Positions 26,297 through 60,115 of a stretch of DNA of 64,000 nucleotides are shown here, piece by piece. The notes below the pieces were generated by a model. It ran no database searches and was not told where the DNA came from. It worked only from the letters and a program-made list of their open reading frames with translations. The stretch's first letter is position 1, and each line of letters begins with the position of its first letter. Made by a program: the position numbers and the translations under genes. The stretch comes from a virus, in IMG/VR virus record IMGVR_UViG_3300025647_000019, positions 29,965 through 93,964 of that record, one strand, 5' to 3'.

Positions 26297-26836
26297 ATGA
26301 TCATTCATATGGAAGGCCCAGATCGTTGTGGTAAAACCACAATTGCAAAATATTTGGCCAAGGTTTATAATCTAGAATATTGGCGATATAGTAATGTAGA
26401 TGAAACATTAAGAAGAAATCCCGATCACTGGAAATATATTCTACGATATTATTATTCTGAAATTCCTGAATTTGCTAAAATGCTAGAAAATCAAGGTAGT
26501 GGTTTAATTTTAGATCGAAACTATATCACTGAATGGGTTTATTCTAAATTATTTAAAAGAGATACATATCCCATTATTTTGGCTGACCTAGAAAGCCAAT
26601 ATGCAGAATTAGGAGCAGTTACCATTTATTGTACTAAAAAGAAATATGATGATTTTGAAGATGAGTTTGTAACAAAAAATCAGATTGATGAAATAAAAGA
26701 ACTCTATGAAAATTATTTTTTGATCTTTTCTAAAATGCCGGTTCTTTGGTTAGATACAACTAATGAGGATTTAGAAAAACAATTAGAAATTATTGATGAA
26801 TTTTTAAAGGAGAATGTTAATGTGGATGAAAATTAA
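26297..26836 (+). CDS. Deoxynucleoside monophosphate / thymidylate kinase
   Basis: EGPDRCGKTT P-loop, ILDR..TE.VYS. Confidence 0.85.
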   Translation: MIIHMEGPDRCGKTTIAKYLAKVYNLEYWRYSNVDETLRRNPDHWKYILRYYYSEIPEFAKMLENQGSGLILDRNYITEWVYSKLFKRDTYPIILADLESQYAELGAVTIYCTKKKYDDFEDEFVTKNQIDEIKELYENYFLIFSKMPVLWLDTTNEDLEKQLEIIDEFLKENVNVDEN

Positions 26837-27242
26837 AAAATTAAATGGACGAGCAAAATTACCAACAAGAGCCCATTCAACTGATGCTGGTATGGATGTA
26901 TATTCAATGAACAATGTTGTTATTGCTCCCGAGGGTGATTACTTATTTCCTCTTGGATGGGCTTGTGAAATACCAAGAAATTGGGCATTAATTGTAAAAG
27001 AAAAATCCGGTAGGGCTGTTAAAGATAAATTAGATGTTGGTGCATGTGTAATTGATTCGGGGTATCGTGGAGAAGTTCATGTTCACTTATTTAATAATTC
27101 AAAAATTCCCGTTGAAATAAAAGAAGGTGAAAAAATTGCACAGATGCTTTTGGTTCCTTGTTGGTGTGGGACTCCAGAAGAAGTTGATGAACTTGATAAT
27201 ACTCCTAGGGGTTCAGGGGGGTTTGGATCTACTGGATTATAG
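26820..27242 (+). CDS. dut: Trimeric dUTPase
   Basis: AGMD, KSG, VIDSGYRGE, KIAQ, RGSGGFGSTG. Confidence 0.95.
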   Translation: MWMKIKKLNGRAKLPTRAHSTDAGMDVYSMNNVVIAPEGDYLFPLGWACEIPRNWALIVKEKSGRAVKDKLDVGACVIDSGYRGEVHVHLFNNSKIPVEIKEGEKIAQMLLVPCWCGTPEEVDELDNTPRGSGGFGSTGL

Positions 27243-29781: not shown

Positions 29782-30101
29782 GAACACGTTGGGATGAATT
29801 AAGAAGAATGGCTGGAGGAATTAATATTCCAGGTCCAGAAAGAATGGGTAAAACCTTTGTTGAACTTTTTTGTCATTGTGATTTTGAACCTTTTGGTCGT
29901 GCCTCTGAAATGTGGGAATATGTTTGGACATTACATTTTCCAGAAGCACCAAGAATGTGGAAATCAACAAAAGGTTGGGTTCAATCTCACACTCATCCAT
30001 ATGGAATGCAATTCAGGGGAAGATCAGTTGAAGATGTTATGAAACAAGCAGAAGATTTTTTTGGTGAATTGGAGAAACAAAATGACAGACCCAAGAAGTA
30101 A
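29778..30101 (+). CDS. Hypothetical protein
   Basis: Coupled ORF. Confidence 0.45.
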   Translation: MRTRWDELRRMAGGINIPGPERMGKTFVELFCHCDFEPFGRASEMWEYVWTLHFPEAPRMWKSTKGWVQSHTHPYGMQFRGRSVEDVMKQAEDFFGELEKQNDRPKK

Positions 30102-30630
30102 AGTTATGTGTGAATATTGTATGGACACACAAGTATATACTGCAAACCCAATGGACCCACCCCATTCGTGTCCATATTGTACACCAGCAGAAAATAGAGC
30201 AATAAGTTGGGATAGTATATGGATGGATCTTGCAAAGTCCATTGCTTTAAGATCAACATGTAAAACTCCAAATAGACAAGTTGGGTGTGTTATTGTATCA
30301 TCTGATAATTCAAGAGTATTAGCTCTTGGATATAACGGTTCAGCAAAGGGTGACGATAATTCTTGTGAATATGGAACTGGTCAAGCATTTAATAGTCGAT
30401 GTACATGTATTCACGCTGAAATGAATGCTCTGACTAAACTTGACACAACGAATCCATGTGATAAGAAAATGTATTTAACATTGTCCCCGTGTGATGTATG
30501 TTGGAAATTGATTGTTAATGCTGGTATTAAGGAATTAATTTTCGATGAAAAATATGGAACAACTGGTGAAAATTTAAAGTATCTAACACATTTAGGAATT
30601 TTGGTGAGGAAATTTAATGGAGATTATTGA
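30082..30630 (+). CDS. dCMP deaminase with N-terminal CxxC..CxxC
   Basis: RSTC, QVGCVIV, GYNG, HAEMNAL, PCDVC. Confidence 0.92.
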   Translation: MTDPRSKVMCEYCMDTQVYTANPMDPPHSCPYCTPAENRAISWDSIWMDLAKSIALRSTCKTPNRQVGCVIVSSDNSRVLALGYNGSAKGDDNSCEYGTGQAFNSRCTCIHAEMNALTKLDTTNPCDKKMYLTLSPCDVCWKLIVNAGIKELIFDEKYGTTGENLKYLTHLGILVRKFNGDY

Positions 30631-44714: not shown

Positions 44715-45331
44715 TGGAAAAAAATAAAAGAGATCCCAAAAGGTTTGATACCGAATTATTTGGGTGGGTAAACACTAATAAAGAAGATGATTATTCTTCT
44801 GAAACTTGGGCATATATCATGTTAAATAAAGAATACATCAAAGGCACTGTAATGGATATTGGATGTGCAGTTGGCCTTCATGTTATTCCTCTTGCAACTA
44901 TATTCGAAGATTTAGATTTGGTATATGGGATTGATATCAATCAAGAAGCTATAGATTGTTCTAATAGTAGACTACCCGAGGAACTTAAAGATAAAGTAAA
45001 ATATTATAAAGTTAATGTTTTAGATTTAGAAAATTATCAAGAAGAAAGTTCTATTGATACTATGGTAAGTTTTCACACTATGGAACATTTTCCAGAAGTG
45101 GATTTAGAAGATATATTTAGTCAGATAAAAAGAGCTTTAAAAAATAATGGACACATAATAATTATTATACCTTATGAACATGCTCATAATGATGGGAATC
45201 ATAAAACCTTTTGGAATGAAACTTCATTGTCAGAATTTATGGAAAAAAATGGTTTTGAAACAATTAAATGTAACAAAATCCAAAATAACAATCTTGCTGG
45301 AATATTTAAAAACAATAAGGAAACAATATGA
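44714..45331 (+). CDS. Class I SAM-dependent methyltransferase
   Basis: MDIGCAVG, GIDIN, MEHF, LKNNG. Confidence 0.85.
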   Translation: MEKNKRDPKRFDTELFGWVNTNKEDDYSSETWAYIMLNKEYIKGTVMDIGCAVGLHVIPLATIFEDLDLVYGIDINQEAIDCSNSRLPEELKDKVKYYKVNVLDLENYQEESSIDTMVSFHTMEHFPEVDLEDIFSQIKRALKNNGHIIIIIPYEHAHNDGNHKTFWNETSLSEFMEKNGFETIKCNKIQNNNLAGIFKNNKETI

Positions 45332-46263: not shown

Positions 46264-47807
46264 AAGATTGTTTATTTATAGCTCCTAGAATTTCTAAAGC
46301 TACATATCAGGAACTAGCTGAAAATTTTACTGCAATAGAAACCCCAACTTGGTCATTACTTTTAGCAGAATCTTGTCGATCTATCGGCTTTGATGTTTCA
46401 ATTTTAGATATGAATGCTGAAAGATTAACTGATGGACAAATGTTATTAAGGATCTCAAATGAAGATCCCAGATTTATTTGTTTCCCAGTTTATGGATCAA
46501 ATCCAAATTCAGGATCTCTTATGATGGGCGATGCAATTTTATTAGCAGAAACTATTAAAGAGACTTTTCCAAATATTCCCATAATATTTGTTGGATCTCA
46601 TATGCAAGCAAGACCAAATCAAGTACTACTGGATCATAAGGGAATTGTCGATATTATTCTTACTGGTGAGGGGGTTTATGCTTTAAGGAATTTATTAAAA
46701 TTGGATTATACAGTTGGAGCCCCTGAATTATTAAATTTGGATTCTGTTAAAGGAATAGGATTTATTAAAGACGGAAATCCCTTTTTAACCCCGCCAGAAA
46801 AAATAGTTCCACAAGAAAGAATGGATATTGATCTCCCGGGATATGCTTGGGATCTTTTACCATATAAGGAGAGTCCTTTAGACTTATATAGATCTCATTT
46901 TTTCCATGCAGAATATCAACACGATAAAAGAACTCCATTTGCTGCAATTTATACATCATTGGGTTGCATGTTTAAATGCTCATTTTGTATGATCAATCTT
47001 ATTAATAAAAATGATAATGATTCTATTGGAGTTGCTTCAAATTATTCAGGAATGAGATTCTGGAGTCCCGAGCTTATAGCGGGAGAATTTGATAAGTTAT
47101 GGGAAATGGGGGTAAGAACAATTCGTATTAGTGATGAAATGTTTTTACTTAATAGAAAATATTATGTTCCATTGTGTGAAATGTTAAGAGATCGTGGATA
47201 TGGAGAAGAACTTCTGATGTGGGTTTATTCTCGGGTTGATACCATTAATGATAAAAGCAATCTTAAGCTTCTCAGAGACGCAGGAATTAAAATGGTTTCT
47301 TTAGGAGTTGAAAGTGGAAATAAAAAAGTTCGCTTAGAAGTTACTAAAGGAAAATTTGAAGAAGTTGATATCAAAGATGTTATTCAAAAATGTAGAGATG
47401 CAGGAATTGAACCAATGGCAAATTATATGTTTGGTCTTCCAGGGGATACTTATGAATCAATGTTAGAAACACTTCAATTATCATTGGAATTAAATACAAC
47501 AGTATGGAATGCCTATGCAGCTACAGCTTTACCTGGTAGTCAACTTTATAAAGATTGTGTAGATAAAAATATTCCTTTACCTCAAACATATAATGATTGG
47601 TCATTCTTTTCTGAAAATACTATTGGTATTCCAACAGAAGAATTAACTTCCGATCAAATTATAGAATTTAGAGATTGGGCATATCAAGTTTATCATACTT
47701 ATCCTCCATTTTTATATACAATAGAAAAGAAATACGGTAAGATAGCAAAAGAAAATATTTTGAACCAGAATAAGATTTCATTAAAAAGGAATAAAATTAA
47801 TGACTAA
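46260..47807 (+). CDS. B12-binding radical SAM protein (class B methylase-like)
   Basis: N-terminal cobalamin-binding domain; GCMFKCSFC; LGVESG; FGLPGDT. Confidence 0.9.
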   Translation: MKDCLFIAPRISKATYQELAENFTAIETPTWSLLLAESCRSIGFDVSILDMNAERLTDGQMLLRISNEDPRFICFPVYGSNPNSGSLMMGDAILLAETIKETFPNIPIIFVGSHMQARPNQVLLDHKGIVDIILTGEGVYALRNLLKLDYTVGAPELLNLDSVKGIGFIKDGNPFLTPPEKIVPQERMDIDLPGYAWDLLPYKESPLDLYRSHFFHAEYQHDKRTPFAAIYTSLGCMFKCSFCMINLINKNDNDSIGVASNYSGMRFWSPELIAGEFDKLWEMGVRTIRISDEMFLLNRKYYVPLCEMLRDRGYGEELLMWVYSRVDTINDKSNLKLLRDAGIKMVSLGVESGNKKVRLEVTKGKFEEVDIKDVIQKCRDAGIEPMANYMFGLPGDTYESMLETLQLSLELNTTVWNAYAATALPGSQLYKDCVDKNIPLPQTYNDWSFFSENTIGIPTEELTSDQIIEFRDWAYQVYHTYPPFLYTIEKKYGKIAKENILNQNKISLKRNKIND

Positions 47808-48780
47808 AAAAATATGTATAATTTTTTGTACGTGTTCAAGAAACCCAAATCAGGGAAATGCTTGGAAAATTTCAACATTGCAGAATTTATTTTCTCAGAC
47901 ATCAGAAAAATATGAATATACTTTTGTAAGTTCGGATTGTTGTTCTCATCCAGATAATAGAAATAATTTAATTAATTTCAATTTTGATGGAAGAGGTTTT
48001 GATTATATTAATCATATTGATACTCCCATATCTCTACAAATGTCATTAAATCATACAATAAAAAAAGTTCACGAAATAGATCCTCACGATTATTATATAA
48101 TGTGGAGTAGTGATACTGGATTCTTAGATCCATATGCAATTCAAAAAATTATAAACGAATTAGATAATGATGATTCAATTTTTGCCCCGGGGTGGAAATG
48201 TGATTTAGCTGGTCCTCCATTTGGAGAAGCTCACAAATATAAACCAGATGTAAAGAAAACTATTTTGCCAATTGGTTATGGATTTAATGGAATATTCGTA
48301 GGATTTTCAAAATATCATGTTGAAAAATATAATTTAAAACCATATTCTGATGTTGTTTTAACTAATTGCGGAGAATGTATGTTAACATATCAAGCTGCTG
48401 CAATAAAAAAACATCAATCAATTATTAATTATGTTTGCTTAGAGGAAAAAATGTGTCCCCCAGATGGATCTTCAAATCTCTTTATGGGGAGAAGGGAAAA
48501 TTTAGTAAGAACATTAAATCTTCGAGGTCCTTCTGGTGAATTAACTTTATGGGATAATTCGAAATATAATTTTAAAGAAATGGTTGAAGGGGGATTAAAA
48601 TATGGATTAGGATATCAAGAAATGGATGCAAATCAATGGTGGTTACATGATCCAAATTGTTATGATGAAAATTATTTCTGTACAAATGATGATTTGTATC
48701 ATTACATAAAAAACAATTGGTATATAAAAAAAGAAGATTTTGATTATGATGCAAATCATGGTGAATTTAGGAGGTTATAA
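47800..48780 (+). CDS. Possible GT-A-like glycosyltransferase
   Basis: SDCCS, LNHT, SSD pattern; weak. Confidence 0.4.
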   Translation: MTKKICIIFCTCSRNPNQGNAWKISTLQNLFSQTSEKYEYTFVSSDCCSHPDNRNNLINFNFDGRGFDYINHIDTPISLQMSLNHTIKKVHEIDPHDYYIMWSSDTGFLDPYAIQKIINELDNDDSIFAPGWKCDLAGPPFGEAHKYKPDVKKTILPIGYGFNGIFVGFSKYHVEKYNLKPYSDVVLTNCGECMLTYQAAAIKKHQSIINYVCLEEKMCPPDGSSNLFMGRRENLVRTLNLRGPSGELTLWDNSKYNFKEMVEGGLKYGLGYQEMDANQWWLHDPNCYDENYFCTNDDLYHYIKNNWYIKKEDFDYDANHGEFRRL

Positions 48781-49322
48781 TGGTAATTAGAAAAGCTTTG
48801 ATATTAACTTATGATAAATTTCAGGATAATGAAGTTCTTTATCCTTATTATCGATTACAAGAGGCGGGATTTAAGGTAGATGTTTCTGCTGAAAAGATTG
48901 GACCTATTTTTGGAATCAATGGATGTAAAATGATGGCAACAGTAGAAGCAGATAAAATTAATCCTGATGATTATGATTTCCTTTGTATTCCCGGAGGAGT
49001 TAAAGCTTTAGAAAAGCTTCGTCAAGTTTCAGAAGCAATTGAATTTACTAGAAAATTTCATGACGATGGAAAAATTATTGCTTCAATTTGTCATGGGGCT
49101 CAAATACTAATTTCAGCTGGGGTTTGTAAAGGAAAGAAAATTTCTGGATATTATAGCATCAAAGACGATATTATTAATGCTGGTGGAACTTATATAGATG
49201 AAGCTTGGGCTCGAGACGGAAATGTTATTTCTTCACCTCATTATGATTTTATGCCGGAATGGTTAGCCATAGCTTTGAAGATGTATGATACATGGAGTCT
49301 TGTTAACAATGACAGATCATAA
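48780..49322 (+). CDS. DJ-1/PfpI family protein
   Basis: FQDNE..YP, IPGG, SICHG. Confidence 0.9.
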   Translation: MVIRKALILTYDKFQDNEVLYPYYRLQEAGFKVDVSAEKIGPIFGINGCKMMATVEADKINPDDYDFLCIPGGVKALEKLRQVSEAIEFTRKFHDDGKIIASICHGAQILISAGVCKGKKISGYYSIKDDIINAGGTYIDEAWARDGNVISSPHYDFMPEWLAIALKMYDTWSLVNNDRS

Positions 49323-49977
49323 AAATGTAATTGTCAAAAAGCCCTGGGGAAAAGAATATCTCATTTTCGAAAATGATGATGTTGGTATTTGGGCTTTACA
49401 TATTAATAAGGGTGAGAGTACTTCATTGCACTGTCACCCTAAAAAAAATACGGGACTGATTATATTAAAGGGGGAAGTAGAAGTTTCCTTTTTAAATGAT
49501 TCAAGAATTCATGTTCCAATGGACAAAATAATGATCCGAAGAGGATTATTTCATTCTTCAAAAGCTATAACTGATGCAGTCATCCTTGAAATAGAAAGTC
49601 CAAAAGATAAATTGGATCTAGTTAGATTTACAGATAATTACGGAAGAAAATATAAACCCTATGAAGGAAAAGATCAAGAAATAGAAAGAACTGATGAGTT
49701 ATGGATTGAAGTTCCTGAAGATCACATAGTTAGCTGTAAATCGGCTTTTGGTAAATTATTTGTAACTGAAAGAACTAATACGGGTAGAATTCCCCTTACA
49801 ACTCACGAATTAGACATAATAATAATTTGTGAAGGAGGAATTATTGATCAGAAGACTGGATGGTATGTTGCTGCTCCGGGTGATGTTATAACTTCAAAGG
49901 TTATGAATATATTATTAGAAAGATTTAATCCAACTCAATCATTAGTTACTATAAAAATTCCAGTCGGGAAAGGTTAA
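49309..49977 (+). CDS. Cupin (sugar-phosphate isomerase-like)
   Basis: KPWGKE, TSLHCHPKK, FHS, EIE..DLVR..D.YGR. Confidence 0.75.
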   Translation: MTDHKNVIVKKPWGKEYLIFENDDVGIWALHINKGESTSLHCHPKKNTGLIILKGEVEVSFLNDSRIHVPMDKIMIRRGLFHSSKAITDAVILEIESPKDKLDLVRFTDNYGRKYKPYEGKDQEIERTDELWIEVPEDHIVSCKSAFGKLFVTERTNTGRIPLTTHELDIIIICEGGIIDQKTGWYVAAPGDVITSKVMNILLERFNPTQSLVTIKIPVGKG

Positions 49978-49978
49978 T

Positions 49979-50770
49979 ATGTTTGAACAAATTTGTTATA
50001 ATAGATTTTTTGAATTTGAAGTAGCAAAAGCTATTGAAGAAAAAAGAATTCAGATACCAGTTTATTTATCAGCAGGACAAGAATCAATTCCAGTTGGGGT
50101 TCATTCAGTATATCCGGATGCTGCTATTTTTGCACAGCACAGATGTCATTCATGGTATCTTACTTATGGAGGTTCTCCTGAAAAATTACGTGATGAACTC
50201 TTGGGATTAGAAACCGGATGTGCAAAAGGAATGGGGGGATCTGCTTCTATTCACGATCCCGATATTCCTATGTTTGGACATAGTGGGCTAATGGGGGATC
50301 AAGTTCCTATTGCTGTTGGTTATGCTCTTGAATCTCAAAAAACAACTATAGCAGTTATTGGAGACGGGGCAGTAGAAGAAGATTATGTTCTTGCTTCATT
50401 AGGTTTTGCTGCAACTAAAAACTGTCCAATATTATTTGTAGTTGAAGATAATAATTTAGCTATTCTTACTGAAAAGAAAGTAAGAAGGTCTTGGAGTATC
50501 GTAGATGTTGCTAAAGGATTTGGATTGAATTCAGCTCATTGTTCAGATGATCCAACTGAAATAAAACATACTTTAGAAATTTTAAAATTACCTGCATTAA
50601 TCAATGTTCATACACATAGACATTTATGGCATGCTGGATCTGGAAATGATGGTCCTCCTGAATTTAATAGATATGAAGATATTAAATCTAGATATAGATT
50701 GGGGTTTCTTGGTGATGAAATGGAACGTAATGTTATAAATGAAGTGAGGGAATTATGGCAAAAACAGTAG
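49979..50770 (+). CDS. TPP-dependent enzyme, E1 alpha-like subunit
   Basis: YLSAGQE, HRCH, GMGGS, GDGA...EDNN TPP motif. Confidence 0.9.
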   Translation: MFEQICYNRFFEFEVAKAIEEKRIQIPVYLSAGQESIPVGVHSVYPDAAIFAQHRCHSWYLTYGGSPEKLRDELLGLETGCAKGMGGSASIHDPDIPMFGHSGLMGDQVPIAVGYALESQKTTIAVIGDGAVEEDYVLASLGFAATKNCPILFVVEDNNLAILTEKKVRRSWSIVDVAKGFGLNSAHCSDDPTEIKHTLEILKLPALINVHTHRHLWHAGSGNDGPPEFNRYEDIKSRYRLGFLGDEMERNVINEVRELWQKQ

Positions 50771-51666
50771 CTGAAACCATTAGGGATACCACAAGATCTC
50801 ATTTGGAAAAAGGCGGAAAATTATTTGGGCAATGTGTAACTGCTGTTGGTTGGGTCGGAGGAACAATTCCTGAAATGACTGAAGAAGAAGGAATTGTAGA
50901 ATTAGCCCTATCAGATTCTTCCAATCCGGGAATGCCAATTGGTTGTGCCTTAGCTGGTAATCGACCAATTTATGTAGTTCGATATCAGGGCTTTTTATGG
51001 TATAATGCTGTATCATTGATTAATTATGCAGGCAAGTCAAAAGAAATGTGGGATGTTCCTTGCCCGGTTTTTATTCGAGCAATTGGAATGGAAGGAAGCA
51101 TAGGTCCAGTTGCAACTTCTTCTGAACATAGCATGATTATGAGAAAATCTGGTATACCTGTATTTGCTCCAATGACCCCAAAGGAATGGTTAAAAGTTTG
51201 GAATTATTATCTTGAGCATGATGATCCAGTATTTTGTTCAGAACATAGAAAAAGTTTTCAATTAACCGATGAGGGAGATTTATCATATATAAAGTTTTAT
51301 AAGGATGCAGATATAACTTTATTTCCAATTTCTGCAGCTAGATTATCAACTAAAGAAGCTGTTGAAGCTTTATACAATGATAAAAAAATAAAATGTAATG
51401 TTTATCCAATTGTTCAATTAAAGCCTTTTGATATTGGTTATGCTAGCAGAGGATTAATTACCCAAAAAGCTTTAGTTATAGATTCTGACAATGAAATTTG
51501 TGGAGCATCAAAATCTATTGCACACGATATTATGCTTCATACAAGAATTCCAACTCATACTTTAGGGTTAGAAGATCGAACAGCAGGGTTTGCCAAACAT
51601 TTAGACAATGGAACTCCGGATGCTAAAAAGATTTATGATAAGGTGGTTTCTCTTGTTAACTATTAA
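50755..51666 (+). CDS. TPP-dependent enzyme, E1 beta-like subunit
   Basis: G.AL.G.RPI, INYAGK, P.TP.E, DDPVF.SEHR. Confidence 0.85.
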   Translation: MAKTVAETIRDTTRSHLEKGGKLFGQCVTAVGWVGGTIPEMTEEEGIVELALSDSSNPGMPIGCALAGNRPIYVVRYQGFLWYNAVSLINYAGKSKEMWDVPCPVFIRAIGMEGSIGPVATSSEHSMIMRKSGIPVFAPMTPKEWLKVWNYYLEHDDPVFCSEHRKSFQLTDEGDLSYIKFYKDADITLFPISAARLSTKEAVEALYNDKKIKCNVYPIVQLKPFDIGYASRGLITQKALVIDSDNEICGASKSIAHDIMLHTRIPTHTLGLEDRTAGFAKHLDNGTPDAKKIYDKVVSLVNY

Positions 51667-52045
51667 CGATATACCAACGGGATTTGGTAATCCTGAAAAA
51701 ATAATAGCAATAGATTTTGATGGAGTAATTCATGATTCATATAATGGATATGGTGATGGAACTTGTTATGGAGAACCCATTCCGGGAGCTATTGATGCTA
51801 TAATTGAATTGTCTGAAAATTATGATATAGTTATTTTTACCGCTAAAGCAAAACCAGATCGGCCATTGGTTAATGGTAAAACTGGAACTGAGTTAGTTTG
51901 GGAATGGCTAAAGGAATATAATATTGATATGTTTATTGCAAAAGTTACCTCTGAAAAACCTAGAGCAAAATATTATATTGATGATAATGCAATAAGATTT
52001 GAAACGTGGAATCAAACAATGAAGGAATTAAAAAATGGAAATTAA
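51608..52045 (+). CDS. HAD-superfamily phosphatase
   Basis: IAIDFDGVI, FTAK, KP..YYIDD. Confidence 0.85.
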   Translation: MELRMLKRFMIRWFLLLTINDIPTGFGNPEKIIAIDFDGVIHDSYNGYGDGTCYGEPIPGAIDAIIELSENYDIVIFTAKAKPDRPLVNGKTGTELVWEWLKEYNIDMFIAKVTSEKPRAKYYIDDNAIRFETWNQTMKELKNGN

Positions 52046-53231
52046 ATATCCTCTTGCTAAACAAACAATAACAAATGAAGAAATAGATGCTCTTATTGAA
52101 TGGCTAAAAACATATCCCCGTTTAACAATGGGAGAAATTACCAAGGAGTTTGAAAGAAAATGGGCAGAATATATTGGAACAAAATATGCCGTATTTGTAA
52201 ACTCTGGATCATCAGCAAACTTACTAATGATATATGCGTTACTGGTGACTGGGAGATTAAAGAAAGGTGATAAAGTTCTTGTTCCAGCAGTTGGCTGGGG
52301 AACAACAGTGGCACCACTGATTCAACTGGGTCTTGAACCAATTATGGTAGATGTGGATCCTTTTACATTTGGTATAGATGTTTATAAATGCGAAAGAGAA
52401 TTAGAAAAAAATCCAGGAATTAAAGCAATATTATTTGTTGATGTTCTTGGAGTTCCTGCCAATATAAAAGAATTAAAAGAGTTGGCTTCTAATAGAAAAT
52501 TATTATTGCTTGAAGATTCGTGTGCAGCATTAGGATCAAAATATGATAACAAAATGATTGGATCCTTTGGGGATATTTCTACATTTTCATTTTATTTTGG
52601 TCATCAACTTTCTACAATTGAGGGTGGAATGATCAATACAAACAATGAAGAAATTTTTGAAGCTTTAATTATGTCAAGAAGCCATGGATGGGGAAAAGAA
52701 TTATCTCAAGAAACATATGATCATTTGATTTCTGAAAACGATATTGATGACTTTCATAAACCATTTACATTTTTTATTCCTGGATTTAATTTAAGAGGAA
52801 CAGATCTTCAAGCAAAAATAGGATTAGGGCAAATAGAAAAAGCAGAATGGGTTGCAAATAGAAGACATGAAAATCATAAAAGATATATGAAAAATCTCGA
52901 TAGATATTGTGATTTCCAATGTCCAGTTCTTGGCCCAGTTGAAGATAGAGTTTCAAGCATTTCATTTGGGTGTTTAGTAAGAGAAAATTCAACCAGAAAA
53001 GAAATAGTTAGAAGATTAGTGGACAATGGAATTGAAACAAGATTATTCAGTGCTGGAAATTTGGGGCTTCATCCATTCTGGAAACAGTATAATAAAGATT
53101 TTTCAAATTTTCAAGTAGCAAACTTAATTCATTCAAATGGATTTTTTCTACCGAATTATCCAGAGCTTACATTAGATGAGATTGATTTTATTTCATCAGT
53201 TGTTATAGAAGGGGTTACTCATGAGCATTAA
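52035..53231 (+). CDS. PLP/PMP-dependent NDP-4-keto-6-deoxyhexose 3-dehydratase (ColD/DdhC-like)
   Basis: DegT fold (NSGSSANL, EDSC) with His in SFYFGHQLSTIEGG where aminotransferases have Lys. Confidence 0.85.
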   Translation: MEIKYPLAKQTITNEEIDALIEWLKTYPRLTMGEITKEFERKWAEYIGTKYAVFVNSGSSANLLMIYALLVTGRLKKGDKVLVPAVGWGTTVAPLIQLGLEPIMVDVDPFTFGIDVYKCERELEKNPGIKAILFVDVLGVPANIKELKELASNRKLLLLEDSCAALGSKYDNKMIGSFGDISTFSFYFGHQLSTIEGGMINTNNEEIFEALIMSRSHGWGKELSQETYDHLISENDIDDFHKPFTFFIPGFNLRGTDLQAKIGLGQIEKAEWVANRRHENHKRYMKNLDRYCDFQCPVLGPVEDRVSSISFGCLVRENSTRKEIVRRLVDNGIETRLFSAGNLGLHPFWKQYNKDFSNFQVANLIHSNGFFLPNYPELTLDEIDFISSVVIEGVTHEH

Positions 53232-54054
53232 ACCAAAAACTTATCCATCAGAAATTATAGACATAGAATTATCAGGACATAAATTTAAATTTGTAGATTG
53301 GAAGCATCCATCACAAGGAGGGCCTCATTTTGACGTTGGAATGTTTGAATTTATAAAATCAATAGTTAAACCCGGAGATGTTGTAATAGACATTGGAACT
53401 CATGTTGGGGTAAAAACTCTAATGTATGGTTTAGCTGCTGGGAAAAAGGGCGCTGTTTATGGTTTTGAACCAAATCCATATGTTTTCGAGCCTTTTAAAA
53501 AATCTTGTGAATTAAATAGGGATATTATAAATGTTATTCCCGTTTGTGCAGCTATAACTGAAGAACCCGGGAACTTTATTTTTCATTATTCAGACGAAGG
53601 ATATTATAATGGAGGATTTGCTTCTAAAACAGATTATGGAGTTGGAGGATGTGGCCATGTTGTCCCAATAGAAGTTGAAGGAATACGATTTGATGATTAT
53701 TTTTTCGGGGTTGAAGGGAAAGAAAAAATTAAATTATTCAAGGTTGATACTGAGGGATATGATCTATCGGTTTTAAAATCCGTTAAATCTTTATTAGAAG
53801 AAGTCAAACCCATTATTCAATCAGAATTATTTTTAATGTTATCGGATGAAGAAATTCAGAATCATTTAAAATTCCTTGACGATTTGGGTTATGTTAATTA
53901 CTTTTTCCCCGATGAAAAACAATCCGTCTATGGTAAAACCAATATTTATAATTTAAGGGATAAAAATTTCACTTGTAATGAATGGCAGCATGCAAAAAGG
54001 GTTTTCAAAGGCAAAAATTTAATTTCAGTTCATAAGAGTCAATTAGAAGCTTAA
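53221..54054 (+). CDS. FkbM-family methyltransferase
   Basis: IDIGTHVG, FEPNP, KVDTEGYD..VL. Confidence 0.9.
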   Translation: MSIKPKTYPSEIIDIELSGHKFKFVDWKHPSQGGPHFDVGMFEFIKSIVKPGDVVIDIGTHVGVKTLMYGLAAGKKGAVYGFEPNPYVFEPFKKSCELNRDIINVIPVCAAITEEPGNFIFHYSDEGYYNGGFASKTDYGVGGCGHVVPIEVEGIRFDDYFFGVEGKEKIKLFKVDTEGYDLSVLKSVKSLLEEVKPIIQSELFLMLSDEEIQNHLKFLDDLGYVNYFFPDEKQSVYGKTNIYNLRDKNFTCNEWQHAKRVFKGKNLISVHKSQLEA

Positions 54055-54136
54055 AAGCCCCTACTTAAAGTATATTTTTTTAACCTGTATTCAATTTAAT
54101 ATTGACTTTAATACTATAGTCCATAGGAGGAAAACA

Positions 54137-54304
54137 ATGACGTCAGAAAATTTTTTTGATAGTTTAAATGAAGAACAAAAACTAAAAGTTGAACAGAAAG
54201 TAAAAGAGATCTTAAATAAAACCCCGGGAGAATCAACGATTCTTGAAATAAAGGAACTTCAGGAAAGTGTAGCAAAATCTATATACAGAATTCTTCACGA
54301 TTAA
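54137..54304 (+). CDS. Small hypothetical protein (55 aa, not in ORF track)
   Basis: AGGAGG RBS; translated by hand. Confidence 0.5.
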   Translation: MTSENFFDSLNEEQKLKVEQKVKEILNKTPGESTILEIKELQESVAKSIYRILHD

Positions 54305-54308
54305 ATTA

Positions 54309-54337
54309 TTTACAAACCAGGTTCTTTGTGATATAAT
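54309..54337 (+). promoter_or_regulatory. sigma70-like promoter TTTACA-17-TATAAT
   Basis: Exact spacing; heads the putative base-modification operon. Confidence 0.75.
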
Positions 54338-54364
54338 CTGCATAGACCGAAAAATTATGGAGGT

Positions 54365-54877
54365 ATGATAGTGCAGATTTTAAATGTCGGTTATGAATTG
54401 ACAAAGCAATTAGAAGAAAAGTATTCAGTTTTACAAAATAGACCTCTTAAGATTAACATCCATCATCCAGAACACCAAATGATCTTGAAAAGATTCATAG
54501 GCCAATTAAATGAGGAATTGGTTGAATATCATCTTGGGGAGGATTTTGAAAGGATTGAAGAAATAGCAGATATTTTAAATTTTGCTATGAGTATTCTTCT
54601 AATGCTAGATTTTGAGTATTATGATATAGAATATTATGAAGAAGTTTGTATGTTTGAATTGTTTATTTCGTGGAATGATATTGCCCACAAGTTGAAAAAT
54701 CGACCTTGGAAAAACGATCAAGTTCTAACTTGTATGGAAACAATAAAACCTTTAGTTAAAAAAGCTTTTGATCAAACCTATTGTTTTGCAGTAGATAATC
54801 ATCCCAAAGAAGAAATAGTTGAAGCAATTAGACATAAGTTTCAGAAAAACCTTTTTAGATTAAAGTCAAATTATTAG
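54365..54877 (+). CDS. All-alpha (MazG / dimeric dUTPase-dCTPase-like) dNTP pyrophosphatase
   Basis: EELVE...EEIAD...F acidic motif and KNRPWK. Confidence 0.7.
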   Translation: MIVQILNVGYELTKQLEEKYSVLQNRPLKINIHHPEHQMILKRFIGQLNEELVEYHLGEDFERIEEIADILNFAMSILLMLDFEYYDIEYYEEVCMFELFISWNDIAHKLKNRPWKNDQVLTCMETIKPLVKKAFDQTYCFAVDNHPKEEIVEAIRHKFQKNLFRLKSNY

Positions 54878-54885
54878 GAGGAGCT

Positions 54886-55581
54886 ATGAGGATATTCATG
54901 AATCTGGATGAAGCATATCCAGAGATTAAACGAGATTTAAATAAATTTGGGATCATTGTTCATCCGAATACAATGCAAGATAAATATGTTGCGGATGATG
55001 ACGATTATTCTACTAAAGAACTTCAGCTATATAGCTTTTGTATTCTCAATACAGAAGATCATTTGAAATATGCTAAGGATAAAGAATGGTGTATTGCTGA
55101 ATTTGCAGAAAGAATTGATACTAGCAAGGAAACTATTAATCCTGGATACGCATATAAAATTCGTCCGATGTGGGAAGAGTTTGTACACGATGGAAAATTT
55201 GGATACACTTATCATGATCGAATGGCTTTTCAAGTTCCAAAAATTATTGAAGAGTTAAAAAAGAATCCCGATAGTCGTCAGTTGATAGTTCAAATATTTG
55301 ATCCTAATATTGACAATAATAATATTGGATCTGGCGATGGAGGAGCTAAAATCCGAATTCCATGTTCGATGTATTATCAATTAATGTATCGTGAAGAGAA
55401 ATTAGATATTCTCTATCATATGAGAAGTGCAGATTTTAATGAACATTTTAGAAATGATGTTACTCTTGCAATGATGCTTCAGCACTATATTGCCAAAGAA
55501 GCGGGACTTGAACCTGGAAAAATGTTTTATACAGCGGGAAGTTTTCACATTTATAAAAAGGATTGGGAAGTTCTAGCCTAA
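54886..55581 (+). CDS. Thymidylate synthase homologue, dCMP-hydroxymethylase type
   Basis: GYTY..R, DSRQ, catalytic IPCS, MRSADF..HFRND (Asp at the base-specificity position), GSFHIY. Confidence 0.8.
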   Translation: MRIFMNLDEAYPEIKRDLNKFGIIVHPNTMQDKYVADDDDYSTKELQLYSFCILNTEDHLKYAKDKEWCIAEFAERIDTSKETINPGYAYKIRPMWEEFVHDGKFGYTYHDRMAFQVPKIIEELKKNPDSRQLIVQIFDPNIDNNNIGSGDGGAKIRIPCSMYYQLMYREEKLDILYHMRSADFNEHFRNDVTLAMMLQHYIAKEAGLEPGKMFYTAGSFHIYKKDWEVLA

Positions 55582-55590
55582 GGAGCTTAT

Positions 55591-56904
55591 ATGTGCGGAA
55601 TAGCAATTAGAAACATTAAGAACTCAAACTATTATACAAAGGAAATGATTCATCGAGGAATTCTTTCTTATGAAAAGGAATATGGGAATCTTCAAATTAT
55701 TCATGAGCATCTTCCAATTCAAAGTTTGGATCTGGATTATCCTATAATTGAAACTGAAAAATATATTGTTCTTTTTAATGGAGAAATATTTGATCACGAT
55801 AAAAAAGACGATTTAGAATATCTAAAAGAAGTTTTTGAAAATTCTAAAAATATATTCAATGCAATTGAAGAAATAAAATATAAAGATGGATTTTATTCGT
55901 TTATAGTTTTAGATAAAGAAGAAAATAAAGTTTATGCTTTTACAGATCCTCTAGGAAAAAAGCAACTATATTATTCTGAGGGAAGTGGAATTGCATCGGA
56001 AATCCGTGGATTGAACTCCATTAAAAAATTCGATCATACTTATTTTGGGACAATTCTTAAATGGGGATATAATACAGACGATAGAACTCCTTTTATTTCT
56101 GTAAAAAGAATTTTACCAAATAAAATCTATACGTTTAATATTGAAATTGAACTTCGGGGAATTAAGAATGATTATTTTGATTTCTTTACTGATAGAACTT
56201 TTTATGGCAGTCCAAGAGATATTATTTATTATACTCTAGAAAAAGCTACACAAAATAGATTAATTGGTCATAAGAAAATTGCTTTATTGCTTTCAGGAGG
56301 TTTAGATAGTAGCATTATTAATCACCATCTCAGTAATGCAGATGTAGTATCTTATACGGTCGAAAATCAAGAAGATATAGAATTTGCTCTTCAGCTTAGA
56401 CCTGATGCTAAAAGAATTAAATTCGATCAATTTGATTTCAAAGATCCTATGTTAGCTATGGAAATGCCAGTAGATCTAGGAAGTATGATTCCACAATATA
56501 ATCTCTGTAAAAATATTAGCGAAACTGTTATCATAACTGGGGATGGAGCTGATGAACTTTTTGGTGGATATAAAAGAATCGCAGAATATGATTCACAAGT
56601 TTCTGATGTTTTTGATGAACTGAGTTATTACCATCTTATTAGATTAGATCGAATGTCAATGTATTTTACAAAAGAACTTCGAAGCCCTTTTTTGAATTTA
56701 GATTTGGTTCGATTTGCTCTTTGCTTACCTCGTGAAGACAGAATGAATAAAAAAATTCTAAAGGAAACTTATAGCGGGATTCTTCCTGATGAAATTATTA
56801 ATCGGAAAAAGACTGCTCTTAAAATTAATAGATGTGCTCAGGATCCTTATGGTTATCGTAAAGAAATGATTAATTGGTTTATGAAAGGAAAAATTAATGG
56901 TTGA
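55591..56904 (+). CDS. Asparagine-synthetase-like glutamine amidotransferase (Ntn + PP-loop)
   Basis: MCGI, FNGEI, DPLGKKQLYY, LSGGLDSS, TGDGADELFGGY, LRSPFL. Confidence 0.9.
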   Translation: MCGIAIRNIKNSNYYTKEMIHRGILSYEKEYGNLQIIHEHLPIQSLDLDYPIIETEKYIVLFNGEIFDHDKKDDLEYLKEVFENSKNIFNAIEEIKYKDGFYSFIVLDKEENKVYAFTDPLGKKQLYYSEGSGIASEIRGLNSIKKFDHTYFGTILKWGYNTDDRTPFISVKRILPNKIYTFNIEIELRGIKNDYFDFFTDRTFYGSPRDIIYYTLEKATQNRLIGHKKIALLLSGGLDSSIINHHLSNADVVSYTVENQEDIEFALQLRPDAKRIKFDQFDFKDPMLAMEMPVDLGSMIPQYNLCKNISETVIITGDGADELFGGYKRIAEYDSQVSDVFDELSYYHLIRLDRMSMYFTKELRSPFLNLDLVRFALCLPREDRMNKKILKETYSGILPDEIINRKKTALKINRCAQDPYGYRKEMINWFMKGKING

Positions 56905-57775
56905 ATCAAAACATATAAATAAAATTACTGCTCAAGAAGCATTACTTTTTAGAAAAGAAATTCCTGAGGATTATCATTGCAATTGTGAATATTGTAGAGA
57001 AAATTTTATTGGAGAAATTTTTAATACTGATGTAGGAAAATATTATTCACAAAGATGTAGAAATTCTTATTATCCAAAAGATACAGAAAAGAAATTTAAA
57101 CATCTCGATGTTGGTCATTGGCCTGGTTATAGATTTGCAGTTCACCATTATACTAATCCAGGGGATATTGTTTTTGATCCAACGGTAGGATCTGGAACTG
57201 CCATTGCTGAGGCAGAAAATAATCATCGAAGAGGTATTGGGGTAGAATTAGAGTTTCCGGAAGTAGCTGATTTTTTTTGTAATGGAAGAGGTACTGTTAT
57301 TCATGGAAATGCTCTGAAAGTTAATCCTGATGATTTTTTAGAAAAAGAATCAATTCAACTTTTAATTAATGGTACTCCATATCCAACAGTAGGAGCAGTT
57401 TCTTCAGATGCTCCAGAAAGAAAAACTGAAGGGTCTTTAAAAGATTATATGCACAAAGAAAATTTAGGAAAACTTAAACTTGATGAATATTATGATATTA
57501 TCCCCCATCTTTATCTTCGATGGATTCCTTATATTAAAAAAGAGGGATATCTCGGGATTATTATTAAAGACATGATGATGAATAAAGAGCCTTATTTACT
57601 TCACAAATATATTATAGATAGCATTTTGGAAAAAACAGATGAACTTGTTTATGATAGCTGTTTTATTCACAAACATACCCCTTCAACAATGTTTATGAAC
57701 ACTTATCCTAAAAGATTCCCCGGGATTAAAATCCCCCTTTATCAAACTGCTATTATACTAAGGAAAATTAAATGA
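56897..57775 (+). CDS. Atypical amino (N4/N6)-methyltransferase-like protein
   Basis: Motif I VFDPTVGSGT, G.GVEL; motif IV appears as NGTPY instead of (D/N/S)PPY. Confidence 0.75.
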   Translation: MVESKHINKITAQEALLFRKEIPEDYHCNCEYCRENFIGEIFNTDVGKYYSQRCRNSYYPKDTEKKFKHLDVGHWPGYRFAVHHYTNPGDIVFDPTVGSGTAIAEAENNHRRGIGVELEFPEVADFFCNGRGTVIHGNALKVNPDDFLEKESIQLLINGTPYPTVGAVSSDAPERKTEGSLKDYMHKENLGKLKLDEYYDIIPHLYLRWIPYIKKEGYLGIIIKDMMMNKEPYLLHKYIIDSILEKTDELVYDSCFIHKHTPSTMFMNTYPKRFPGIKIPLYQTAIILRKIK

Positions 57776-58332
57776 ATAAAAACGTAATAGCTCACGAATT
57801 AGGTCATGCCATTGTTGGGTATTTAATGGATAAGGATTTTTGGCCAACAAATATTGAATTATATTCAAATGATCATAAAGTAAAGGCGGCATGTATTTTT
57901 GAATCTAATAGAATGGAAAAACCTAAATTATCTGGTACAAAATATGTGTCAGATCTTGGTGGGCTTATTGGCGAAATGATATGGGAAGGAAGTTGGAGAG
58001 TTTGGGGAGCTTCGTATGATCTTGATTCAATTGCTGGTTCTGGAAATAATAAGATAGCAGTTGAAATTGATAATTGGATGTGGATGGAAAATGGACCAAA
58101 GTCTTATCATGGACTAATGGCAAATATGTCCAGAAGTAAACGGAAAAAAATATATGTTGATGAAAGCTTTACACAATATAAATTGCCAAATGTTTGGAAA
58201 GTCTATAAAAAGGTTTTAAAAAATATCAATTCTGAAGAATTTAGAAATATTGTAAATGAAATTTATAAAGAAAAATTAAATAAAATCTTATATAAGAGAT
58301 TACATGGTTATATTCAAAGGATAGTTAAATGA
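57772..58332 (+). CDS. HEXXH metallopeptidase (M41/FtsH protease-like domain)
   Basis: IAHELGHAIV, LGG.IGE, GASYD. Confidence 0.7.
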   Translation: MNKNVIAHELGHAIVGYLMDKDFWPTNIELYSNDHKVKAACIFESNRMEKPKLSGTKYVSDLGGLIGEMIWEGSWRVWGASYDLDSIAGSGNNKIAVEIDNWMWMENGPKSYHGLMANMSRSKRKKIYVDESFTQYKLPNVWKVYKKVLKNINSEEFRNIVNEIYKEKLNKILYKRLHGYIQRIVK

Positions 58333-59072
58333 AGGTTTTAGAAAATGGTTATATCAATCTGATTGATGTTATGGGTGACGATCTTAGGATTGTTAATGCC
58401 GCAAGAAAGTCTTTCGGATCCAGAACATATTCTTTTGGACCAAAGGAAAAGAAACTTCTCAAATATCTTTGGGATAATCAACACACTTCTCCATTCGAAA
58501 TGGTTGAGTTCATGTTTGAAGTCAAGGCTCCATTGTTTGTGGTTCGCCAATGGCAACGTCATAGGACTTGGAGTTATAACGAAGTGAGCAGACGATATAC
58601 TTCAGACGGTTTGGATTTTTACGTTCCAGAAAAAATAAGAACCCAAGCAAAGGATAATAAACAAGCATCAGATGGATTTTTGTATGAATCTGGAAGTAAA
58701 TTTATTGTTGAAGCGATAAAAGAACACAATGAAGATTGTTTGTCTTTTTATGAAAATCTAATCAATGAAGGTTGTTGCCGTGAACAAGCAAGAATGGTTC
58801 TCCCTCAAAATATGATGGTGGAATTTGTGGCAAAGGTTGACCTTTCAAATCTGATAAAGTTTCTTAGACTTCGAAACCATCCTCATGCTCAATGGGAGAT
58901 TCAAGAGTACGCAAGAGCAATTGAAAAGTTGATTGAACCAATCGTTCCTGAAACTATGAAATTATATAGGGAAACAATACCAGCAACGGTTGGTCCAGTT
59001 CAAGAGCGAAAAATTGTGCCACTAAATGAAGAAGAATTCAATCCAACTTTTGATGGAGATGGGAGTGAATAA
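58329..59072 (+). CDS. thyX: Flavin-dependent thymidylate synthase
   Basis: H.SPFE, RQWQRHRTWSYNEVSRRY, EQARMVLP, AQWEI. Confidence 0.96.
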   Translation: MKVLENGYINLIDVMGDDLRIVNAARKSFGSRTYSFGPKEKKLLKYLWDNQHTSPFEMVEFMFEVKAPLFVVRQWQRHRTWSYNEVSRRYTSDGLDFYVPEKIRTQAKDNKQASDGFLYESGSKFIVEAIKEHNEDCLSFYENLINEGCCREQARMVLPQNMMVEFVAKVDLSNLIKFLRLRNHPHAQWEIQEYARAIEKLIEPIVPETMKLYRETIPATVGPVQERKIVPLNEEEFNPTFDGDGSE

Positions 59073-59302
59073 TGTTCGGATTAGAAGACGACCTTTATAG
59101 TAAAATTGAAAAGTTAACAACAAAGGGTGATGCATTGGCTCTTTGGATTTGTGATAATTATGATAAGATTCAAGAATTAAAAGATATGAATTCACATGAA
59201 TCAAAGATGCTCCATAAACTTTTAAAAGATTGGGGCGATGCAAAAAGATTTAGTCCTTGGATGTATAAAGAGGGGCAACAAGAGAAGTTCAAAACTTTAT
59301 AG
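59072..59302 (+). CDS. Hypothetical protein
   Basis: Coupled ORF. Confidence 0.45.
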   Translation: MFGLEDDLYSKIEKLTTKGDALALWICDNYDKIQELKDMNSHESKMLHKLLKDWGDAKRFSPWMYKEGQQEKFKTL

Positions 59303-59311
59303 GGGGGAATA

Positions 59312-59611
59312 ATGTTAGAAATCATACTTTTTATAATAATTTTTATTTTAGTCTTATTGGTTTTAGTTGAGGGAATTATAATTCGGGGTTTTTTAAAAAC
59401 TGATAAAATTGATTCCGAATATAAACCTGCAGCTTTAACCGGTAGGGAAATTGAAGCAATTAGGAGAAAATTAGAAAGCATAGGAATGAATGCTATTAGT
59501 AGGGCTGATGTAGCTAATTTAATAAGGACTTTTCAATTAATAGTTCTTGGTGTTTATGAGGACAAGGATCCTTATGTTCCAGCAGATCCCTATGAAGATA
59601 TACCCCAATAA
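59312..59611 (+). CDS. Hypothetical membrane-anchored protein
   Basis: N-terminal TM helix. Confidence 0.5.
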   Translation: MLEIILFIIIFILVLLVLVEGIIIRGFLKTDKIDSEYKPAALTGREIEAIRRKLESIGMNAISRADVANLIRTFQLIVLGVYEDKDPYVPADPYEDIPQ

Positions 59612-59700
59612 AATATATACTTATGGGAATAAGAGGAATGTCTCTGTTATAAAGTGATTATTTCCAATCATTTATCAGGGGCATTTTTTTGTGTTTTTTA

Positions 59701-59729
59701 TTTACTTTTATCCGGGATTAATATATAAT
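59701..59729 (+). promoter_or_regulatory. sigma70-like early promoter TTTACT-17-TATAAT with T-rich upstream tract
   Basis: Exact spacing; heads a run of small genes. Confidence 0.75.
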
Positions 59730-59770
59730 AGACCTATCAGTTAAACAAACACCTTTCAAGGAGTTCCCCA

Positions 59771-60115
59771 ATGTTCAAGATCTATTACGCCGGCAAGCTT
59801 AGCAAAATGCCTCAAGGTCCCGTTCGGGACGACTTCACTAACAAGGTTATTGATTTGACGTTTGGCTGGGATTTCTACATCGAACGCCACGATGGCCTCG
59901 ATCTTGATGAAACTCACACTTTTGTTGGTATCACTGATCTGACCGATCCTGAAGAGATCTTTTACAAATATAATATGGAAATCGATGAAGATTTCGCCGA
60001 ATATATTTACAACTCTGATGCTACTCATACTAGCATGAGTGTTGGTGATGTTCTGGTCGATACAATGACGGGCAAGAGGTACTTCTGCGACCGAATTGGT
60101 TTTACAGAGGTTTAA
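59771..60115 (+). CDS. Hypothetical early protein (SMSVGDV motif)
   Basis: AAGGAG RBS; TSMSVGDVLV motif common in phage early proteins. Confidence 0.55.
   Translation: MFKIYYAGKLSKMPQGPVRDDFTNKVIDLTFGWDFYIERHDGLDLDETHTFVGITDLTDPEEIFYKYNMEIDEDFAEYIYNSDATHTSMSVGDVLVDTMTGKRYFCDRIGFTEV

Follow-up and report, generated by a model that had tools for sequence, protein, structure and literature searches.

A phage operon that most likely builds an undescribed nitrogen-bearing cytosine

Background

Phage T4 replaces deoxycytidine by 5-hydroxymethyldeoxycytidine by means of gp56, gp42, gp1 and Cd. Here we analyze an operon of an uncultured virus (IMG/VR record IMGVR_UViG_3300025647_000019), found in a stretch of 64,000 nucleotides that covers positions 29,965 to 93,964 of that record and is hereafter called the window. 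The operon and other genes of the window resemble the T4 system in bringing together an all-alpha nucleoside triphosphate (NTP) pyrophosphatase, a thymidylate synthase (TS) homologue with Asp at position 177, a candidate deoxynucleoside monophosphate (dNMP) kinase and a deoxycytidine monophosphate (dCMP) deaminase under a similar pre-replicative logic. T4, however, has neither an amidotransferase nor an N-methyltransferase step, which would be furnished here by an asparagine synthetase-like (AsnB-like) protein and a methyltransferase-like (MT) protein, and it glucosylates its DNA. The most likely product of the gene set is a nitrogen-bearing cytosine, so far undescribed, that is made for the phage DNA. 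New chemistry, resistance to restriction enzymes and CRISPR, and enzymes for epigenetic sequencing have all come from hypermodified phage bases.

Other phage systems supply further comparisons. RB69 gp48 and DLP3 gp80 (PDB: 9iqu, 9iqc) share with the window TS both Asp177 and a short architecture ending just past the H207 motif (PMC13326640). The modules of Xp12 and PaMx74 likewise place a pyrophosphatase, a TS with Asp177 and a deaminase in one neighbourhood (bioRxiv 10.1101/2024.12.05.627091), but a methyl group would give an AsnB-type enzyme nothing to activate. In Synechococcus phage S-B43, CmoA makes carboxy-S-adenosylmethionine, CmoX carboxymethylates C5 of cytosine in DNA, and CmoY ligates glycine; glutaminase-bearing relatives of CmoY were predicted to use ammonia, which could not be tested (PMC12783734). 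In the pathway proposed here an asparagine-synthetase homologue would also tailor a C5-substituted cytosine of phage DNA, but its partner is a TS homologue and not a C5-methyltransferase homologue, and CmoY, which acts on DNA, lacks the glutaminase domain of the window protein.

Residues that mark the different kinds of TS homologue have also been described. N177D is a mark of a cytosine substrate (PMC13326640; PMC8670742), an acidic residue at position 143 accompanies hydroxymethylation or hydroxylation, and D169N, which 9iqu and 9iqc carry in the printed alignment of Lee et al. 2026, is a mark of flavin-dependent 5-hydroxy-dCMP synthases (PMC13326640). Positions 147 and 177 best separated contigs with modified cytosine from unmodified ones (PMC8670742). 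In the literature searched we found no paper describing the present gene set, in agreement with a sequence-only reading of this DNA, which had known of no characterised pathway with these genes, and no paper under aminomethyl-, carbamoyl- or carboxamido-cytosine names.

Organization of the operon

The window is the terminal 64 kb of a 93,964-bp viral contig (GC 33.6%) with a completeness of about 47% (CheckV). The sequence-only reading had singled out four adjacent genes behind a promoter of their own as a putative cytosine-modification pathway. The coordinates and domains of the four open reading frames hold, as does their adjacency, but the unit is one of six genes, with an HExxH protein and ThyX following in overlapping codons:

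54309..54337, + strand: promoter-like site, TTTACA-17-TATAAT with extended -10 TG, 11/12, top score in 53800-59900, directly 5' of the first gene
54365..54877, + strand: all-alpha MazG/PRA-PH-like NTP pyrophosphohydrolase (NTPase), candidate dCTPase, 170 aa (phrog_173, 3.9e-5)
54886..55581, + strand: putative dCMP-type TS homologue of a distinct clade, 231 aa (PF00303, 1.7e-18)
55591..56904, + strand: AsnB-like glutamine-dependent amidotransferase of the N-terminal nucleophile (Ntn)/PP-loop type, short, 437 aa (GATase_7 + Asn_synthase, 9e-31)
56897..57775, + strand: class I S-adenosylmethionine methyltransferase-like protein, 292 aa (N6_N4_Mtase motif I, residues 81-119)
57772..58332, + strand: stand-alone HExxH protein, 186 aa, start/stop codons overlapping both neighbours
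58329..59072, + strand: ThyX, flavin-dependent thymidylate synthase for dTMP supply (PF02511, 1.6e-50)

From the NTPase to the ThyX gene there are spacers of 8 and 9 nt with Shine-Dalgarno sequences and otherwise overlapping start and stop codons, an arrangement by which the six genes are predicted to be translationally coupled. The claim of a separate promoter is borne out in that the site at 54309-54337 is the top sigma-70-like site of the region, though the total number of such sites in 53800-59900 is not above that of shuffled sequence. On balance we favour the view that this early operon encodes a nucleotide-pool pathway replacing deoxycytidine by a nitrogen-bearing 5-substituted deoxycytidine, and the evidence is set out below gene by gene.

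The TS homologue

We aligned the TS with E. coli ThyA, T4 gp42, RB69 gp48 and the 5-methyl-dCMP-type enzyme of PaMx74; the N-terminal half aligns poorly and the equivalent of E58 could not be placed. Read directly, the motif is RSADFNEHFRND, in which Asp occupies the place of residue 177 of E. coli ThyA. The protein retains ThyA C146, R166, S167, D169, Y94 and H207 and shows the substitutions N177D, H147S, L143R and G173H; window residues R157, C160, S161, R180, S181, D183, H187 and D191 correspond to L143R, C146, H147S, R166, S167, D169, G173H and N177D, respectively. The earlier statements that the catalytic Cys is kept and that Asp replaces the Asn of ThyA are thus correct (C160 and D191), and T4 gp42, said to read FRND, has GFRND at the same place, FRND being common to both enzymes. 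That Asp177 distinguishes dCMP from deoxyuridine monophosphate (dUMP) agrees with the literature, and the window's N177D and H147S both match residues tied to cytosine substrates and modified-cytosine viromes (PMC13326640; PMC8670742). The enzymes differ at three further positions (ThyA numbering):

T4 gp42: 143 D, 169 D, 173 G
RB69 gp48: 143 E, 169 N, 173 V
PaMx74 TS: 143 N, 169 D, 173 G
Window TS: 143 R, 169 D, 173 H

The combination in the window is characteristic of a large group. Asp177 is invariant in 95 clade members, as are C160, R180 and S181, and the R143/H173-type signature is constant in 26 AsnB-associated and 69 TS-only sequences, the sole exception being one Tyr at 173. A quick maximum-likelihood tree sets this clade apart from ThyA, T4 gp42, RB69 gp48 and the PaMx74 TS by a branch whose SH-aLRT support is 99%; RB69 gp48 is the nearest reference, with weak support, and the AsnB-associated genes form at least three subclades interleaved with TS-only genes. 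From these residues and the tree we class the protein as a predicted dCMP-type enzyme of a clade of its own.

Assignment to four described types was considered and rejected: 1) Canonical ThyA, converting dUMP to dTMP. C146 and R166/S167 are kept, but position 177 is Asp and not Asn, the protein terminates 10 residues past the H207 equivalent so that the folate-closing C-terminal segment of ThyA is missing, and the top NCBIfam score, 64.5 bits, falls far short of the curated equivalog cut-off of 174.6. 2) The dCMP hydroxymethylase of the T4 gp42 type. D177 is present, but an invariant Arg occupies position 143 in place of the acidic residue (D143 in gp42), His replaces G173, and the C-terminal extension of gp42 is lacking. 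3) The 5-hydroxy-dCMP synthase of the RB69 gp48 type. D169N is absent, D183 (the equivalent of D169) being invariant, and Arg and His stand in place of Glu143 and Val173. 4) The 5-methyl-dCMP synthase of the Xp12/PaMx74 type, compared here through the PaMx74 TS. The PaMx74 enzyme lies near a dihydrofolate reductase gene, has 298 aa and carries N143, G173 and P147, whereas the window clade is short (231 aa in the window) and carries R143, H173 and S147.

The top solved-structure matches to the TS by sequence are 9iqu and 9iqc (E 3.5e-13), both with D169N. As a speculation, Arg143 and His173 beside C5 could bind an anionic group. A bolder and rather doubtful proposal is that the R143/H173 clade carries out a C5 chemistry on dCMP other than methylation, hydroxymethylation or hydroxylation, and that the nested add-on genes yield three undescribed DNA bases (the TS product, a glutamine-derived amine or amide, and its N-methyl form) that would take the place of all cytosine in hundreds of phages (aquatic, gut and Clostridium).

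The only cultured carriers of the R143/H173/D177 clade are Clostridium perfringens phages (CPD4, CP3, Clo-PEP-1, CPAS-15, P21 and others), at 43% identity. Their gene stands without the add-ons, near or next to the DNA polymerase gene (in CPD4, locus L001, 48884-49645), and we found no report on the DNA composition or modification of these phages, which offer a practical entry to the first intermediate. Separately, in a complete 430-kb jumbo phage (L094/L095, G004:C1:396502-398406) the gene of the TS clade gives two partial matches (to model positions 1-165 and 163-240) about 1.1 kb apart in one open frame of 637 aa; the pattern suggests an intein, or a mobile element inserted in frame, in the region of the active site.

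Co-occurrence of the TS, AsnB and MT genes

Loci were counted from IMG/VR, with a neighbourhood defined as 8 kb. The TS clade is present at more than 532 loci, the AsnB family at about 300 and the MT at 23; the counts below refer to 80 of the AsnB loci, and to the best 80 of the TS loci. The TS clade lies within 8 kb in 27/80 AsnB loci, usually abutting. About 49 AsnB loci, from a T4-like jumbo group that has a gp23 capsid gene, lack a nearby TS, but each of the five genomes of this group that are at least 63% complete carries the TS clade elsewhere, about 100 kb off (E 1e-56 to 1e-96). The AsnB family is therefore accompanied by the TS clade in every genome that could be judged. The reverse does not hold, as AsnB is missing nearby in 78/80 best TS-clade loci and absent throughout the five complete TS-only genomes. 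Both TS and AsnB lie within 8 kb in 21 of the 23 MT loci; the remaining two (L110 and L120), without TS or AsnB, sit on contigs that are 35-37% complete and, being fragments, decide nothing. The MT is in turn absent from four complete genomes with TS and AsnB. The TS set thus contains the AsnB set, which contains the MT set.

The simplest reading of these nested sets is a linear pathway from TS to AsnB to MT in which each enzyme would need the product of the one before, the order that the sequence-only reading had proposed. A lack of co-occurrence elsewhere, which it had named as a refutation, is not what we observe: the module is found in hundreds of uncultured phages of several unrelated lineages, which differ in replication and capsid genes. 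The closest relative, locus L003, shows identities of 81% for TS, 59% for AsnB and 70% for MT. The nesting further predicts additional mass shifts when AsnB and MT are added to the TS.

Neighbours of AsnB include genes for the NTP pyrophosphatase, dUTPase and dCMP deaminase, and in 39 loci a thymidylate-kinase-like gene stands directly upstream. In these T4-like jumbo loci (about 39) it is a P-loop gene of 180-200 aa that ends 1-6 nt before the AsnB start (e.g. L033:7389-7994), which suggests a dedicated kinase for the modified nucleotide in those jumbo phages.

Beside some TS-AsnB modules there are C5-cytosine-methyltransferase-like genes (L005:5321-6466, L050:10093-11283 and L028:5792-7018), with TECG or DDCG instead of the catalytic PC and a Cys-rich C-terminus; the window has none. 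Their identity with CmoX was rejected, as they lack the SPPC of the published CmoX definition.

The AsnB-like amidotransferase

In the AsnB-like protein MCGI (with the Ntn Cys2), R22, N63, G64, E65, D74 and the PP-loop SGGLDSS are invariant or nearly so among 26 homologues. For the AlphaFold2 model (mean predicted local distance difference test, pLDDT, 87.6) the nearest structures are ASNS, AsnB, beta-lactam synthetase, carbapenam synthetase (CarA) and TsnB9. AsnB and its relatives share with it the two-domain fold of Ntn glutaminase and PP-loop domain (template-modelling score by query 0.69-0.77), the catalytic Cys, the PP-loop and the equivalent of E. coli AsnB K449, which is conserved in the family. 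The window protein differs from them in its length, which is less by about 120 residues, in its restriction to viruses and in its link with a single TS clade. The family lacks the E. coli AsnB segment 297-327 and the last ~70 residues, and has Asp in place of E348. In E. coli AsnB, segment 297-327 holds T322, T323 and R325, which are implicated in beta-aspartyl-AMP formation.

Relatives number more than 5,000 in metagenomes, besides the IMG/VR loci, which an alignment-based search recovered and a single-protein pattern scan of IMG/VR did not. A tblastn search of 50,697 cultured-phage records gave no match, and 185,579 species genomes gave only five, all on contigs of metagenome-assembled genomes (MAGs), three of them from taxa which we take to be freshwater or aquatic. 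In the Atlas, too, the nearest clusters are in viruses. Apart from a few MAG contigs, the family is thus confined to viruses. GATase_7 is given as not enriched in the supplement of MetaGPA. A predicted complex of AsnB with TS scored 0.00, a value obtained without controls that speaks neither for nor against binding.

A role as asparagine synthetase was rejected on four counts: the aspartate loop is deleted, the score of 161.3 bits lies under the TIGR01536 equivalog cut-off of 267.1, the family is virus-only, and it is tied to one TS clade. As the sequence-only reading had supposed, the protein is by these features very unlikely to make asparagine. This bears on an alternative that we hold to be improbable, in which the TS product (e.g. 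5-methyl- or 5-hydroxymethyl-dCMP) is itself the final base, and AsnB either balances pools, by aminating dUMP/dTMP-type nucleotides to the cytosine form, or makes asparagine as the product of an auxiliary metabolic gene. The TS product can evidently stand alone, because most TS-clade phages lack AsnB, and PP-loop enzymes outside PF00733, such as GMP synthetase, do aminate ring carbonyls. Moreover, a TS with a PRA-PH-like NTPase and a deaminase is typical of 5-methylcytosine phages (bioRxiv 10.1101/2024.12.05.627091). A general metabolic gene, however, would not be restricted to genomes with one TS clade, pool balancing leaves the dependence of the MT on AsnB unexplained, the deleted loop and low score speak against asparagine synthesis, and the signature of the PaMx74 5-methyl-dCMP synthase differs from that of the window TS.

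The methyltransferase-like protein

In the METHYLTRANSFERASE-like protein, Pfam coverage is limited to motif I, where FDPTVGSGTA matches PF01555 positions 174-212 (E 4.8e-9). Family alignments bring out an N-terminal Cys/His-rich YHCxCxYC, FDPTVGxGT, an xGxPY that replaces (D/N)PPY, and SDAP. The short NGTPY methyltransferase of the sequence-only reading is indeed present, the window protein reading LINGTPYP, and among 16 homologues only G, P and Y of this element are invariant. The AlphaFold2 model (pLDDT 86.3) has a class I Rossmann fold, and its nearest folds, tied at Z 13.8-15.5, are RlmO, the m2G tRNA methyltransferases Trm11, TrmN and Trm14, and PrmC. Among these neighbours Trm11, TrmN, Trm14 and PrmC are NPPY/DPPY enzymes, tied with other class I methyltransferases; RlmO is an m5C RNA methyltransferase, and the folds tied with it methylate exocyclic amino or amide nitrogens. 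The modelled fold would suit an enzyme that N-methylates an exocyclic amine or amide, but is no proof of this.

These properties also enter into a second alternative, unlikely in our estimate though to be taken seriously, which is tailoring after replication: the TS product would be incorporated into DNA, and a CmoY-like AsnB and a Zn-ribbon MT would modify the polymer, from carboxyl to carboxamide to N-methyl carboxamide. CmoY is an AsnB homologue that joins an amine to 5-carboxymethylcytosine in DNA, and a cluster of glutaminase-bearing ligases is predicted to use ammonia (PMC12783734). The MT has an N-terminal Cys/His motif such as proteins that bind nucleic acids typically have, and RNA polymers are the substrates of its nearest folds, while activation of a carboxylate is known PF00733 chemistry. 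Against tailoring of the polymer, a source of the carboxyl group is not evident, and searches for the other Cmo components were negative: CmoA (TIGR00740) has no match in the ~47% complete contig or in four complete genomes with TS and AsnB, and PF00145, for C5-methylases, has none in the contig, in these four genomes or in a fifth at 63%. Membership in the CmoX/CmoY system was rejected on this account, and because CmoA and C5-methylase/CmoX homologues are absent the present system would differ from CmoA/CmoX/CmoY in being built on a TS homologue. The AsnB gene also lies among nucleotide-pool genes, directly after a dNMP-kinase-like gene, and its family is acidic (median isoelectric point 5.8). 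Because of these neighbours and this acidity we lean, by a modest preference, to action on mononucleotides rather than on DNA.

Nucleotide-supply genes

In the NTPase the EExxE...ExxD residues (E50, E51, E54, E66 and D69) are invariant in 9 homologues and fit the MazG/PRA-PH metal-binding pattern; the profile matches, that to phrog_173 included, are weak (further ones are MazG-like PDB 1vmg at 0.006, 2p06 and HisIE). A homologue of this gene stands beside the TS in 18 AsnB loci and 15 TS loci. Three further genes of the window concern the same pool:

26297..26836, + strand: P-loop kinase-like protein, candidate dNMP kinase for the modified nucleotide (weak matches: AAA_28, dNK, Thymidylate_kin)
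26814..27242, + strand: trimeric-type dUTPase (PF00692, 3e-30)
30061..30630, + strand: dCMP deaminase (PF00383, 5.9e-24)

The sequence-only reading had argued that dTMP supply is already covered, and ThyX, the dCMP deaminase and the trimeric-type dUTPase were all found. The dNMP kinase that it listed exists as a kinase-like gene, with weak matches only; compared with the kinase-like gene directly before AsnB in 39 loci, it shows 24% identity (E 0.004).

Proposed pathway

In the pathway that we favour, the MazG-like enzyme would, by analogy, convert dCTP to dCMP, both removing the canonical precursor and feeding the pathway. Cys160 of the TS would attack C6 of dCMP, with Asp191 selecting cytosine, and a functionalised one-carbon group would be put on C5; a hydroxymethyl is the first guess and a carboxyl-bearing group the second. 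The AsnB-like enzyme would then hydrolyse glutamine, adenylate the oxygen of the substituent with ATP and let ammonia replace it, giving an aminomethyl or a carboxamide. Its catalytic residues are conserved, and that its substrate is the TS product we infer from the nested co-occurrence. The xGTPY methyltransferase would N-methylate the new nitrogen, a role suggested by the fact that its gene almost never occurs without TS and AsnB. The phage P-loop kinase and the host NDP kinase would raise the product to a triphosphate for the phage polymerase, while ThyX, dUTPase and dCMP deaminase would keep the dTTP supply separate. Phage DNA with the modified base would be protected against restriction and similar nucleases.

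As to the chemistry, the series hydroxymethyl, aminomethyl, methylaminomethyl is a tentative choice, well short of an even chance; the series from a carboxyl-bearing group through carboxamide to N-methylcarboxamide is possible but less likely still, and the remaining probability falls on other outcomes. Taken as a whole the earlier interpretation is supported in part: the meaning of Asp177, a role for AsnB other than asparagine synthesis and the co-occurrence of the genes stand, and the four-gene extent does not.

Several points weigh against the favoured pathway: 1) The step from hydroxymethyl to aminomethyl would need new chemistry, O-adenylation of an alcohol, because PF00733 enzymes adenylate carboxylates; to our knowledge every biochemically characterised member does so. 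2) The carboxamide version, in which amidation itself would be standard PF00733 chemistry, needs a carboxyl-bearing TS product, which is without precedent. 3) By sequence comparison, R143 and H173 have no characterised counterpart. 4) The TS cofactor could be folate or flavin, because the C-terminus is missing and the best structure matches carry D169N. 5) The dCTP preference of the NTPase is an analogy with T4 gp56 and PaMx74_53, drawn from its position beside the TS. 6) The kinase assignment of 26297-26836 is weak. 7) Further pathway genes may be unseen, because the contig is only about 47% complete. 8) The product cannot be named from sequence, the pathway being known here from genes alone. 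9) CmoY, the only characterised phage AsnB homologue, acts on DNA and not on nucleotides (PMC12783734).

The upstream sugar island

About 13 kb of glycan genes lie upstream of the operon. They form a variable island between conserved flanks (window 39287-54054 versus L003:2709-6734): orthologues of a GT1 gene (54%) and an HD gene (57%) flank the 13-kb sugar-biosynthesis island in the window, and in L003 they enclose only a GIY-YIG endonuclease, a sulfotransferase and a small cytidylyltransferase. One may ask whether module and island make up one system, in which the modified cytosine anchors an unusual methylated, branched amino sugar, much as T4 has glucosyl-hydroxymethylcytosine and RB69 arabinosyl-5-hydroxycytosine. 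The island ends 311 bp before the operon, its HAD gene shares the PHROG annotation phrog_1238 with RB69p051 of the arabinosylation cluster, and the GT1 and HD orthologues of L003 are situated 2.3 kb upstream of its module. However, all other TS, AsnB and MT loci are without island genes, the island is a gene block of its own next to an operon with its own promoter-like site, and an N-methylated amine or amide would be a poor glycosyl acceptor. We therefore consider a joint system very improbable. Because its genes are missing from the other loci, the island is best seen as a variable neighbour and not as part of the module, and decoration of the base keeps a small probability. The 311-bp gap between the island and the promoter-like site contains an open reading frame of 55 aa at 54137-54304.

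Other features and occurrence of the DNA

The HExxH protein at 57772-58332 has no match in Pfam, PHROG or NCBIfam, and L003 is the one locus that keeps it in this place (39% identity); it is possibly like the FtsH M41 peptidase domain, as leads in the Atlas point to Peptidase_M41. The ThyX gene has the same position in L003 as well. A megablast search of the region against the 50,697 cultured-phage records gave no match. No RNA run was listed for the operon. Contigs from two further studies were short and of low depth and say nothing about modification. Contigs with near-identical DNA come from 2017 freshwater runs and from runs of a 2024 study that are labelled marine.

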